The notes under the pieces: model-generated | Database searches by the model: none | What the model was told of the DNA's origin: nothing | The model's input: the letters and a program-made list of their open reading frames with translations, nothing else | Origin: Vulcanimicrobiota bacterium | GTDB taxonomy: Bacteria > Vulcanimicrobiota > Vulcanimicrobiia > Vulcanimicrobiales > Vulcanimicrobiaceae | Direction: 5' to 3' | Assembly (NCBI GenBank): GCA_963833095.1 | Contig: CAWHWQ010000004.1 | Coordinates: 160,001 to 224,000, forward strand | DNA: 64,000 nt | Position numbers and translations under genes: made by a program | Shown: positions 46,321-52,858 of the stretch, one piece after another | Layout of the letters: each line of letters starts with the position of its first letter | Position numbering within the stretch: the stretch's first letter is position 1

Positions 46321-46389
46321 AACCGCGTCGTTGGAGCGATCCGCCGCGACGGCACTAAGGACAAGGGACGCCCGTGCCCCGCCACCGTC

Positions 46390-46567
46390 AACCCTCGGTA
46401 ATGCCCCTTGACCGGCCGACCCTACTGCTGCCACCATCCTCGCACCATGATCTCGATGTTCGTTTCGACGACCACGACGACCACCACCACCACGACCACT
46501 GTCGTTCGGTGCAGGTTGACGTAGGCTAAAACACGAGATCAAGGACAGCTTACGAATTAGGGAGCCA
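46390..46567 (+). repeat. Direct-repeat copy of the thr promoter/leader (46995-47208) lacking the terminator
   Basis: 46444-46556 identical to 47049-47161; 36-nt hairpin segment absent. Confidence 0.92.
46447..46524 (+). CDS. Duplicate Thr-rich leader peptide ORF
   Basis: MISMFVSTTTTTTTTTTTVVRCRLT, identical to 47052-47129. Confidence 0.55.
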   Translation: MISMFVSTTTTTTTTTTTVVRCRLT

Positions 46568-46649
46568 TCAGCGTGGCGAAAGCCATCCAGGATTCCTAAG
46601 GCGAAGCGAAAAAACGCATGCGCACGTTCTACGCTTGCAGGAGGGCAAC

Positions 46650-46991
46650 ATGAAGATACTTCGTGCACTTTTTGCCGTCGTCATTGCCTTTAGCATCCCC
46701 GTCGTAGCTCTGGCGGATTGCTATGTTTACGCTACGTGGTCGCCGGGACTTCTCGTCTACCAACCGGCGAATAATTCGTGCGTCACGGTAAAGCACGGAT
46801 TCCGATGCAAATTTGGCGCCGGAAAGACGATCTCCCTCGGTTTCGGTGGCCCGAACAGCACACGCACCGCCTGCATCGCGACGCTGCAGAACGTGGGCAG
46901 CATGTTTGCGGATAAGTGGCATCTTAGCACGAGCAGCGGCTGCAGCTTCCACTGGAAAGGTTCAAACACGGTTGAGGTCAGCCTTCGTTAG
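46650..46991 (+). CDS. Small secreted Cys-containing protein
   Basis: AGGAGG RBS; signal peptide ending ALA; 5 Cys. Confidence 0.7.
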   Translation: MKILRALFAVVIAFSIPVVALADCYVYATWSPGLLVYQPANNSCVTVKHGFRCKFGAGKTISLGFGGPNSTRTACIATLQNVGSMFADKWHLSTSSGCSFHWKGSNTVEVSLR

Positions 46992-47012
46992 GTTAACCCT
47001 CGGTAATGCCCC

Positions 47013-47042
47013 TTGACCGGTCCACCCCGCTGCTGCTAAGGT
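47013..47042 (+). promoter_or_regulatory. Predicted sigma70 promoter of thr leader
   Basis: TTGACC-18-TAAGGT with TG extension. Confidence 0.65.
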
Positions 47043-47051
47043 AGCCAAACC

Positions 47052-47129
47052 ATGATCTCGATGTTCGTTTCGACGACCACGACGACCACCACCACCACGA
47101 CCACTGTCGTTCGGTGCAGGTTGACGTAG
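47052..47129 (+). CDS. thrL: Threonine attenuator leader peptide
   Basis: 11 consecutive Thr codons directly upstream of a terminator and thrC. Confidence 0.88.
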   Translation: MISMFVSTTTTTTTTTTTVVRCRLT

Positions 47130-47158
47130 GCTAAAACACGAGATCAAGGACAGCTTAC

Positions 47159-47196
47159 GAAGCCCCGCACCGATTGGTGCGGGGCTTCTTGCATTT
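47159..47196 (+). terminator. Attenuator terminator
   Basis: GAAGCCCCGCACC-GATT-GGTGCGGGGCTTC 13-bp stem followed by TTGCATTT. Confidence 0.85.
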
Positions 47197-48347: not shown

Positions 48348-49246
48348 TCGCTTCGTCGTCAGTGTTCCCGCCACCAGCGCCAATCTCGGGCCGGGCTTCG
48401 ATTGTGTCGGCATCGCGCTCGACCTGCGCGCCCGCGCGATGGTCGAACCCGCGAAACGGCTTCTCGCTCGAATTCAGCGGCCCGGAACAACCCACGCACA
48501 TCGGGTTCGAACGGATGATCATCGACGCGATGCACACGATCAGCAGCGAGCTGCCGCGCGTGCGCGTACACCTCAACAATGCGATTCCGCTGGGCAAGGG
48601 CGTGGGCTCCAGCGCCGCCGCAAGCGCGCTCGGCATCACCATCGCCGCGCGTGCCTACGGCCTCGAGCTCTCTCGTGACGACATCGCGGATCGCGTGTGC
48701 GCGCTCGAGGGCCATCCCGATAACGCGCTGCCCGCCGTCTACGGCGGCATCGTGATCGCCACCTCGGCACGCGCCAGCATCAAACTCCCCGCGCCGCGCG
48801 ATTTACACGCGATCGTCGTCGTGCCCGAGTTCGATCTTGCAACCGAAAAAGCGCGCGCACTGCTTCCGATCCAGTACGATCGCCGCGACGTCGTCTTCAA
48901 CATTCAGCGCGCGGCGCTGCTCGGCGCCGCACTCGCCTCGGGCAACTGGAACCTGCTGCGCGAAGCGATGAACGACCGCTTCCACCAGCCCTATCGGGGC
49001 GAGGTCGTGCCCGGACTGGCCGACGCACTGCGCGTCGATTCACCCGAACTGATCGGCATCGCGCTCTCGGGCGCGGGGCCCAGCGTGCTAGCCATCGTCC
49101 GCGACCGTGCCGCGTGGCGCCCCATCGCCGCCCGCATCGCCGCTTGCTTCGAAGCCGCCGGCATCGCCGCCCGGAGCTACCGCCTGCCCTTCGCCGCGCG
49201 CGGCCTAGTTTCGCGCCGGCACTTGACGGAGCGCAAAGCGGCATGA
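48334..49246 (+). CDS. thrB: Homoserine kinase (frameshift near 48455)
   Basis: VPATSANLGPGFD in one frame; PLGKGVGSSA, EGHPDN, HQPYR, LSGAGPS in the next. Confidence 0.9.
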
Positions 49247-49252
49247 TAGCCT
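49223..49252 (+). promoter_or_regulatory. Predicted sigma70 promoter of the hom-metY-metX leader
   Basis: TTGACG-18-TAGCCT with TG extension, overlapping the end of thrB. Confidence 0.65.
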
Positions 49253-49259
49253 ACCCGAA

Positions 49260-49343
49260 ATGTTCGCGCCCACCATGATGACCTGTTCCATGTGCATTAT
49301 TCAAATGAATAAGGCGGGGACTGTCATTGGGAGCACCGTGTAA
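49260..49343 (+). CDS. Putative Met/Thr/Ile/Cys-rich attenuator leader peptide
   Basis: MFAPTMMTCSMCIIQMNKAGTVIGSTV; ATG 7 nt after the -10 box. Confidence 0.72.
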   Translation: MFAPTMMTCSMCIIQMNKAGTVIGSTV

Positions 49344-49367
49344 AACACGGAATCGAGAAAGCACCAA

Positions 49368-49407
49368 AACGACGCCTCCGCCGATACGACGGGGGCGTCG
49401 TTCTTTT
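49368..49407 (+). terminator. Attenuator terminator
   Basis: AACGACGCCTCCG / CGGGGGCGTCGTT 13-bp stem followed by CTTTT. Confidence 0.82.
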
Positions 49408-49432
49408 ACTCGGAGCTCAAAGGGAAACCATC

Positions 49433-50557
49433 ATGGACTGTACGGTTGGAATCGGATTACTCGGATGCGGCACGGTCGGCGCGTCGGTCGCGCAGCGTCT
49501 GCTCTCCGAGCGCGACGCGATCGAGCGGCGCAGCGGCGTGCGCTACAAACTCCAGGCGATCGCCATCGCCAATCCGTTAAAAGCCCGCCCGGCCGAAATC
49601 GATCCGGCGCTCTTCACGAAGAACGCGCGCGCCGTCATCGACGATCCGCGCGTCGATCTGATCGTCGAAGCGATCGGCGGCACCCACGACGCCTCCGAAC
49701 TGCTCGAATACGCGCTCGAACGCGGCCGCACGGTCGTGACCGCCAACAAAGATCTCATCGCGACGCAAGGCCCGCGCCTCTTTGCCCTGGCCCATTCGCG
49801 CGGTGCGCGCTTGCGCTACGAAGCCGCCGCCTGCGGGGCGATTCCGGTGATCCGCGTGCTCGACGACGCGCTCGCCGGCGATTACGTTCACGCCTTCGGC
49901 GGCGTGGTCAACGGCACGTGCACCTACATTCTCTCGCAGATGGAACGCGGCGAAGAGTACGACGTCGCGCTGCGCCGCGCACAAGAACTGGGCTTTGCCG
50001 AAGTCGATCCGACCAGCGACGTCGAGGGCCTCGACGCCGCGCACAAACTCGCACTGCTCATGCAGCTCGCGTTTCAAATGGCGGTGATCTCGCCGCGCTT
50101 ACGCCGCAGCGGCATCAGCGGGGTGAGCAAACGCGACGTGGCCCGCGCGCAAATGCTCGGCTATCGCATTCGCCTGGTCGCCGCCGCCACACGCAACGGC
50201 AACGTTGCCAGCGGCGAAGTCGCCCCGGTGCTCGTACCCGAAGCGCATCCGTTTGCGCAGGCCAGCGGACCCGAAAACGTCGTGCGCGTCGTCTCGCGCG
50301 ATGCGGGTGCGCTGCTGCTCTCCGGCACCGGCGCCGGCGGTTTTCCCACCGCGTCGGCGGTGCTCGGCGACGTGGTCACGGCGCTGCGCGACATCGCCAA
50401 TCAGCGCGCGGTGAATTACCCCGCGCTCAATCCCGCGCTCGATATCGCACCGCTGTTTGCGAACCTCGCGCGCCATCCCGAACTCCCACGCTATCCGGTG
50501 TGGGATGACTCGCTCCTCGAAGCTCCGGTCTCGCAGGTTGAAACTGCGTTCTCATGA
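49433..50557 (+). CDS. hom: Homoserine dehydrogenase (no evident ACT domain)
   Basis: GLLGCGTVG, VTANK, YEAA..GAIP, NGTCTYIL, DVEGLDAAHK, GAGGFPTASAV. Confidence 0.92.
   Translation: MDCTVGIGLLGCGTVGASVAQRLLSERDAIERRSGVRYKLQAIAIANPLKARPAEIDPALFTKNARAVIDDPRVDLIVEAIGGTHDASELLEYALERGRTVVTANKDLIATQGPRLFALAHSRGARLRYEAAACGAIPVIRVLDDALAGDYVHAFGGVVNGTCTYILSQMERGEEYDVALRRAQELGFAEVDPTSDVEGLDAAHKLALLMQLAFQMAVISPRLRRSGISGVSKRDVARAQMLGYRIRLVAAATRNGNVASGEVAPVLVPEAHPFAQASGPENVVRVVSRDAGALLLSGTGAGGFPTASAVLGDVVTALRDIANQRAVNYPALNPALDIAPLFANLARHPELPRYPVWDDSLLEAPVSQVETAFS

Positions 50558-52858
<2,301 letters not shown>

Follow-up and report, generated by a model that had tools for sequence, protein, structure and literature searches.

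We consider it quite probable, from comparison of related loci and from RNA folding, that the hom-metY-metX leader of this Vulcanimicrobiota bacterium is a ribosome-mediated transcription attenuator of the classical kind that senses charged Met-tRNA and Cys-tRNA. The evidence also leans towards a wider reading, in which family-wide leaderless Met/Cys attenuators replace SAM riboswitches for methionine synthesis and sulfur uptake in the Vulcanimicrobiaceae, with the Met:Cys ratio tuned to each operon.

The window, meaning the whole stretch of 64,000 nucleotides that was analysed, contains profile matches to thrC and thrB upstream of the leader and to hom, metY and metX downstream, the latter three on the forward strand. 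The first gene under predicted control is hom (49433..50557), which codes for homoserine dehydrogenase and scored above the cut-off of NCBIfam NF004976. It was found as a single copy in the genome, which is 81% complete. metY (50582..51848), from the O-acetylhomoserine sulfhydrylase family, matches TIGR01326 in two pieces (profile positions 1-232 and 260-418), and metX (51845..52831), from the homoserine O-acetyltransferase family, matches NF001209 with an E value of 5e-79, which is under the curated cut-off. The assembly has frame breaks in thrB (near 48459) and in metY (near 51307). Both are indels relative to all four close relatives compared and are probably assembly errors. The closest named hom proteins share 88-98% identity and belong to Eremiobacteraeota, Ca. 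Aquilonibacter or similar. Ca. Aquilonibacter is a member of the Vulcanimicrobiaceae (Vulcanimicrobiota), and Vulcanimicrobiota/Eremiobacterota are the nearest named relatives of this bacterium. Near-identical pieces covering the hom leader are present among assembled contigs of four metatranscriptomes (5-12% of words present). Some of these pieces start within thrB and others cross the terminator; such contigs say nothing of strand, transcript ends or expression level, and they could derive from DNA.

A predicted sigma-70-type promoter (49223..49252, forward strand) precedes the leader. Its -35 box TTGACG (49223-49228) and its -10 box TAGCCT (49247-49252) are separated by an 18-nt spacer, and 7 nt lie between the -10 box and the ATG at 49260. 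Reading the sequence directly, we found that the coordinates given for this promoter and ATG in an earlier note on the same DNA were all correct. That note had missed the TG at 49244-49245, which makes this an extended -10 element (TG-n-TAGCCT, 49244-49252). The same TG begins the thrB stop codon, the promoter is encoded in the final thrB codons (49223-49246), and the leader ATG lies 13 nt past the thrB stop. No terminator lies between thrB and the leader, and transcripts that read through from the thr promoter would therefore meet the attenuator too. A consensus promoter scan over the leader called no promoter, and support for the promoter comes from its conservation in relatives.

We examined this conservation at 87 hom loci from 84 genomes, which were chosen for generic diversity among the best matches and so form a non-random sample in which kin are not independent. 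The earlier note had suggested looking for a conserved Met-rich reading frame upstream of hom in related genomes. A promoter-like pattern, an adjoining ORF of 22-30 codons and a terminator were found at 66 of the 87 loci, spanning 24 genera and including 12/12 loci in the bacterium's own genus. An RNA model picked up a 67th leader. Of the 21 loci without a leader by the search pattern, one was missed by the pattern, one sits at a contig edge, six are operon-internal genes, nine are members of another hom group whose upstream segment differs, and four have a promoter without a leader, two of these resembling clean attenuator deletions. At L069 and L092 the promoter is fused straight to the post-terminator segment, apparently by natural deletion of the attenuator. 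The other hom group (L017, L018, L019, L021, L081 and L025-L028) has no leader ORF and carries a strongly conserved segment of about 40 nt after the promoter. The segment could encode an N-terminal extension or act as an RNA element; Rfam gave no match for it (7/9 loci scanned).

Numbered from the ATG, the promoter bases T-13 (66/66), A-12 (65/66), G-15 (65/66), T-8 (64/66) and T-16 (61/66) are nearly invariant in the 66 relatives, and TTGAC lies 35-37 nt upstream of the ATG. The loose -35 and -10 boxes required by the search pattern make this conservation partly circular. Several features that the pattern did not demand are conserved as well. The end of the -10 box lies exactly 7 nt from the ATG in 64/66 leaders, the TG extension is present in 61-65 of the 66, and a Shine-Dalgarno-like word precedes the leader ORF in just one of 66, in keeping with the absence of a Shine-Dalgarno sequence noted earlier at the hom leader. 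The fixed 7-nt geometry leads us to infer a start site at AUG 49260 or one base before it. We conclude from these comparisons that the leader element is real and conserved and is likely to be functional.

The leader ORF (49260..49343, forward strand) has no Shine-Dalgarno sequence and codes for 27 amino acids. Its four internal Met codons (6, 7, 11 and 16), two Cys codons (9 and 12), four Thr codons (5, 8, 21 and 26) and three Ile codons (13, 14 and 23) agree with the counts made before, and codons 6, 7, 9, 11 and 12, with 16 as a possible addition, are the candidate Met/Cys control codons. In this single peptide only Met and Cys exceed chance: binomial tails against the proteins of the genome were 0.001 for Met, 0.02 for Cys, 0.07 for Thr and 0.15 for Ile. 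Up to codon 14, the part in which stalling can take effect, there are just two Thr and two Ile codons.

Three RNA structures with mutually exclusive pairings are predicted in the leader, all on the forward strand. In the protector hairpin (segments 1:2, 49278..49327), which is the predicted fold of the untranslated transcript, the control codons pair with segment 2. The antiterminator (segments 2:3, 49313..49382) would join GGCGGGG (49313-49319) to CTCCGCC (49376-49382), with extensions at 49322-49325/49371-49374 and 49327-49330/49364-49367. The earlier note had picked out these two words; both are present, and constrained folds produced the predicted pairing between them. The intrinsic terminator (segments 3:4, 49368..49407) has the 13 contiguous base pairs reported previously (49368-49380/49390-49402, one of them G-U), two further pairs and an imperfect U tract, TTCTTTT (49401-49407). 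The fold of the leader has a z score of -4.26, and none of 200 shuffled sequences was equally stable.

We scored these structures on an alignment of 64 leaders, obtained from the 66 by removing two near-duplicates. Terminator columns do not line up between genera, and RNAalifold consequently returned just 11 pairs; the structures were then named by hand, so the pair counts below lean towards hand-named pairs. With this reservation, the protector and terminator are 82.7% paired, 23 of their 27 pairs change on both sides, and their covariation score is 0.271, compared with 0.160 for shuffled and at most 0.139 for slid controls. Both-side changes occur at all six pairs of the protector's inner stem (49297-49312) and at 9 of 10 terminator pairs, the terminator being 88% paired. 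For the antiterminator, 83.4% of cells are paired against at most 58.8% in slid controls, with 13 cells showing both-side change. Covariation in this pairing is modest: 4 of 8 pairs, and a score of 0.121 where one of the slid controls reached 0.118. The stem covariation proposed as a check in the earlier note was thus borne out for the protector and terminator but only modestly for the antiterminator, where the support is conserved complementarity more than covariation. An alignment-free test of cognate against foreign duplexes favoured a leader's own antiterminator partner in 34/64 leaders and 12/24 genera. We rejected this permutation test as antiterminator evidence, as the irrelevant 1:3 pairing, included as a control, also looked significant.

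We folded nascent transcripts with a stalled ribosome, modelled by blocking 13 nt from the A-site codon. In the hom leader at 49260 the antiterminator forms with the ribosome at codons 6-14, and its main helix is lost at codon 16. The terminator arm is freed when the ribosome is at the stop codon, and the protector hairpin forms when no ribosome is present. Across the family, the terminator arm is sequestered with a ribosome at the last Met/Cys codon (among codons 5-15) in 65 of 66 leaders, compared with 17 of 66 with a ribosome at the stop. In the full transcript with a ribosome on Met11, the terminator is the more stable structure at equilibrium (-38.7 vs -27.0 kcal/mol for the antiterminator), and read-through must therefore depend on the order of folding. 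When no ribosome is modelled, 40 of 66 nascent leaders fold into the antiterminator, and no single default state is therefore predicted for the family.

These features suggest how the switch at hom would work. Transcription would start at or next to AUG 49260, and a ribosome would initiate there with no Shine-Dalgarno sequence. With Met and Cys plentiful, the ribosome would pass codon 15, reach the stop codon and cover segment 2, so that the terminator forms and the transcript ends near 49405. With Met or Cys scarce, a pause at codons 6-12 would cover segment 1 and leave segment 2 free to pair with the 5' arm of the terminator before the 3' arm is made, giving read-through into hom-metY-metX. 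If the leader were not translated, the 1:2 hairpin would form and transcription would terminate. Translation, pausing and regulated termination are thus steps that we infer for this leader from its layout and folds.

We determined which amino acids the leaders encode by comparing 59 distinct hom-leader peptides with 914 long ORFs of the bacterium's own genome. Met was enriched 8.7-fold and Cys 10.7-fold, compared with 1.35-fold for Thr and 0.66-fold for Ile, and one peptide per genus gave the same picture. The Met bias is almost wholly a matter of the reading frame: AUG makes up 15.6% of in-frame codons, compared with 1.2% and 0.1% in the other two frames, and in 64/64 aligned leaders the most conserved Met column shares the frame of the start codon. 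Cys accounts for 8.9% of leader residues and 0.8% of protein residues, and both of its codons are used (80 TGC, 52 TGT). It is also common in the +1 frame (11.9%), which is a by-product of the Met codons. The in-frame Met/Cys codons stand at a constant distance downstream of the conserved promoter, at positions where stalling would free the antiterminator. Of the 531 codons that lie 39-13 nt upstream of the antiterminator strand (segment 2), 293 are Met or Cys, 30 are Thr (5.6%) and 18 are Ile (3.4%); past that strand Met and Cys fall to 59 of 674 codons. Several Met codons lie within self-complementary stems, and RNA structure may help to retain them.

As a control set we used 25 loci for a sulfonate-type binding protein whose leader the RNA model had picked up in the bacterium's own genome, with one locus from an unpublished genome left out, and found the same kind of leader at 19 of the 25. 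Genomes flagged as unpublished support none of the claims made here. Genus means over codons 2-15 differed between hom and transporter leaders for Met (2.94 vs 1.9) and Cys (2.2 vs 3.7). The corresponding means for Thr (1.15 vs 0.9, p = 0.60) and Ile (0.66 vs 0.85, p = 0.33) did not differ, although these transporter operons are unrelated to homoserine; the p values are overstated because genera are related. This comparison of leader codons indicates that Met and Cys are the signal and that the ratio between them follows the pathway.

The hom leader was first described as sensing Met, Thr, Ile and Cys together. Such integration, at least in the bacterium's own genus, would suit a single hom that serves all of the homoserine-derived amino acids and adjoins thrC-thrB, and one hom match is what the genome contains. 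Two Thr and two Ile codons do lie within the permissive zone, ten related peptides of the genus average 12% Thr and 11% Ile over codons 2-15, and Thr is in mild excess across the family ahead of the Met/Cys cluster (44 of 273 codons, 16%). However, neither Thr nor Ile is enriched over the 59 peptides, so the four-amino-acid reading fails family-wide; only its Met and Cys part survives. Ile is absent from 30 of the 59 peptides, and the level of both amino acids is the same as in transporter leaders. The Ile codons at 13-14 make up one side of a covarying stem, and true Thr leaders in this family hold 7-11 Thr codons. We therefore regard a four-way sensor as unlikely, and Thr and Ile codons would be at most a minor, genus-specific input. 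It is quite improbable, too, that Cys codons alone are sensed, as in mycobacterial polycysteine leaders, with AUG retained for hairpin fit. Met shortage would on that account block leader initiation and not stall elongation. Cys shows the highest enrichment and occurs at least once in 59/59 peptides, Met codons often fall within palindromic stems, and Cys sensing by leaderless ORFs has been shown in mycobacteria (bioRxiv 10.1101/834739, in the part available). Against this, AUG hardly ever occurs in the other two frames, hom leaders have more Met than Cys and transporter leaders the reverse, Cys occurs just once in 16 of 59 peptides, and leader L134, before a Cys/Met-metabolism enzyme, has five internal Met and no Cys.

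Two further explanations dispense with sensing of tRNA charge. The nascent peptide or the RNA might respond to a metabolite such as SAM, with arrest caused by contact between peptide and tunnel in place of waiting for a tRNA. Met genes usually respond to SAM, the searches turned up no known SAM riboswitch to fill that role, and the leaders share a loose pattern in which Met and Cys keep their positions. The remaining residues nevertheless vary widely, sister leaders swap codons by pathway as tRNA sensing predicts, and Rfam gave no significant match at this locus or at 20 related ones, all of which makes metabolite arrest very improbable. That the terminator is simply leaky at a fixed level behind an untranslated chance ORF we find scarcely credible: the promoter was uncalled by the consensus scan, but the frame, the length (22-30 codons), the codon bias and the pairings are all kept in 24 genera.

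Attenuation by Met- and Cys-tRNA also has to be weighed against the regulators expected for these genes. Genes for methionine synthesis are normally under SAM riboswitches, T-boxes or protein regulators. An Rfam scan of the hom locus at E <= 10 gave five weak, unrelated matches, the best at 19.3 bits and all far under gathering scores, with none to SAM riboswitches or T-boxes, as the earlier note's reading of the locus implied. Rfam gave no match at 20 related loci. We found the SAM-I riboswitch in 0 of 61 family genomes and no T-box or MetJ in the bacterium's own genome (81% complete). Other SAM riboswitch classes were sought at the loci only, and all of these results mean "not found" and not "absent".

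The leader at hom has relatives elsewhere in the genome and the family. A BLAST search of the hom leader against its own genome returned only the self-match at significance, whereas an RNA model built from this leader matched three other sites in this genome and numerous ones across the family; we inspected 30 matched sites and could name 16 of the downstream proteins. Leader codons differ with the gene that follows. Tyr, Phe and Trp codons precede EPSP synthase and prephenate dehydratase, Leu and Val codons precede ilvB and ilvC, Ile codons precede an ilvA-like PLP dehydratase, and Thr codons precede a different kind of hom. Met/Cys leaders also occur before metY, PAPS reductase, sulfite reductase and the sulfonate-type binding protein, and the leader before the Cys/Met-metabolism enzyme (L134) has Met without Cys. 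In one genus (g35), a hom that heads a threonine-type locus has a leader with 7-8 Thr. The same architecture with other codons before other amino acid genes thus serves as a natural control. In a sister family of the same class, Met/Cys ORFs were found at two of three hom loci examined, one with a Shine-Dalgarno-like word; matches to the RNA model outside the family were weak, the best at 34 bits.

A strict genome-wide scan gave 33 sites with a promoter and an ATG, 16 of them with short ORFs and three with terminators, namely the hom, transporter and ilvB leaders. The transporter leader is a second leaderless Met/Cys leader with a terminator, before the sulfonate-type binding protein (L100:1501-1668, G000:C5:569992). 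The ilvB leader is leaderless, rich in Leu, Val and Ile, and likewise followed by a terminator (L102, G000:C5:455693, minus strand). The scan missed a leaderless poly-Thr leader within the window (47052..47190, forward strand) and so undercounts. This leader contains 11 Thr codons in a row and is followed by a strong terminator; it stands before thrC-thrB and is separate from the Met/Cys switch. It overlaps a 170-nt direct repeat with 92% identity (46387-46556 and 46992-47161), and a second copy of the poly-Thr leader, which lacks the terminator, precedes a small ORF (46635-46991) of no known family. The repeat region looks like an insertion with duplication.

A further conserved element lies between the terminator and the start codon of many family members. 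It consists of a core, TTCCCRTC, followed by the Shine-Dalgarno sequence, with a predicted hairpin that masks the latter and a conserved loop (for example at L013, L020, L039 and L100). The element was found in 49 of 66 hom leaders (21 of 24 genera), at 11 of 25 transporter loci and in none of 12 non-sulfur leaders. It is missing from all 12 hom leaders of the bacterium's own genus and retained where the attenuator is deleted. One copy was present in each of four of five genomes searched, and Rfam gave no match. The element may be a second, translational layer of sulfur/Met control in most other genera.

Sensing Met by stalling has a built-in difficulty, as we see it, in that Met shortage can halt initiation on the leader itself, for which termination is predicted at hom. 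If the proposed family-wide set of Met/Cys attenuators is correct, it offers a direct test of how elongator Met-tRNA can be sensed by a leader whose initiation itself needs Met. The family is conserved and includes natural variants (Met-only, Cys-heavy and leader-deleted), and this question is therefore testable. Among the cases in the literature we searched, such a set would also be the first with good support in which Met-codon attenuation of transcription controls a Met biosynthetic operon. That literature, from which subscription journals are largely missing, contained no attenuator with Met codons that had been tested and did not cover this phylum. The "ribulon" idea would be widened, from Cys alone to Met/Cys and from control of translation to that of transcription, and the leaders provide a means of annotating sulfur genes in a soil phylum of which most members are uncultured.

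Comparative-genomics reports by Vitreschak et al. in 2004 are said to describe Met codons in Pasteurellales thr-operon leaders. The mechanism itself is not new. The earlier note had called it unusual for met genes; it is a textbook mechanism with a rarely documented amino acid pair, and Met-rich leaderless leaders have already been proposed for Deinococcus metS and Streptomyces metNIQ. The SAM-I riboswitch, T-box and MetJ act on the same target genes, and the two RNAs among them share the terminator/antiterminator output; none was found in the loci and genomes searched. In the parts of these sources available to us, a survey of Actinobacteria detected no conserved RNA element upstream of methionine operons (PMC1262725), PMC1183508 argues that attenuator sensitivity requires selective loss of charge by the tRNA that reads the control codon and leaves methionine unmentioned, and PMC2965389 yielded nothing on Met leaders.

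The nearest counterparts are other leaderless leaders. According to the available part of PMC4007540, Deinococcus deserti has leaderless leader ORFs genome-wide with mapped starts at or one base before the AUG, among them Deide_09379, which is Met-rich and precedes the gene for Met-tRNA ligase (metS), Deide_16409 before Cys-tRNA ligase, and Deide_15739 before asd. These leaders are putative, the Met leader precedes a synthetase, and none of the 14 listed there precedes hom, metY or metX. The metL leader of Streptomyces lividans is also leaderless, codes for 29 amino acids with Met and Cys codons, precedes metNIQ and has been proposed as a Met attenuator (PMC8079986, as far as available). Its target is an import system and it has no typical intrinsic terminator according to its authors, whereas the hom leader has a covarying terminator, a predicted antiterminator and a biosynthetic operon downstream. 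The mycobacterial "Cys ribulon", as described in the accessible portion of bioRxiv 10.1101/834739, resembles the present family in that leaderless short ORFs report sulfur amino acid supply at several operons. Its Cys sensing acts on translation, however, through a polycysteine tract and masking of the Shine-Dalgarno sequence with no terminator, while the hom leader has mixed Met/Cys codons, two separated Cys and an intrinsic terminator. The classical attenuators (E. coli trpL, Salmonella hisL and thrL; bioRxiv 10.1101/834739 and PMC1183508, in the parts available) share with the hom leader an ORF with control codons, the protector, antiterminator and terminator, and an amino acid biosynthetic operon. 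The hom leader differs in its Met/Cys codons, in an ORF placed apparently at the 5' end of the transcript with no Shine-Dalgarno sequence, and in its host, a member of the Vulcanimicrobiota. With the ORF, the cognate codons upstream of the antiterminator strand and the terminator all present, it likely works as those attenuators do.
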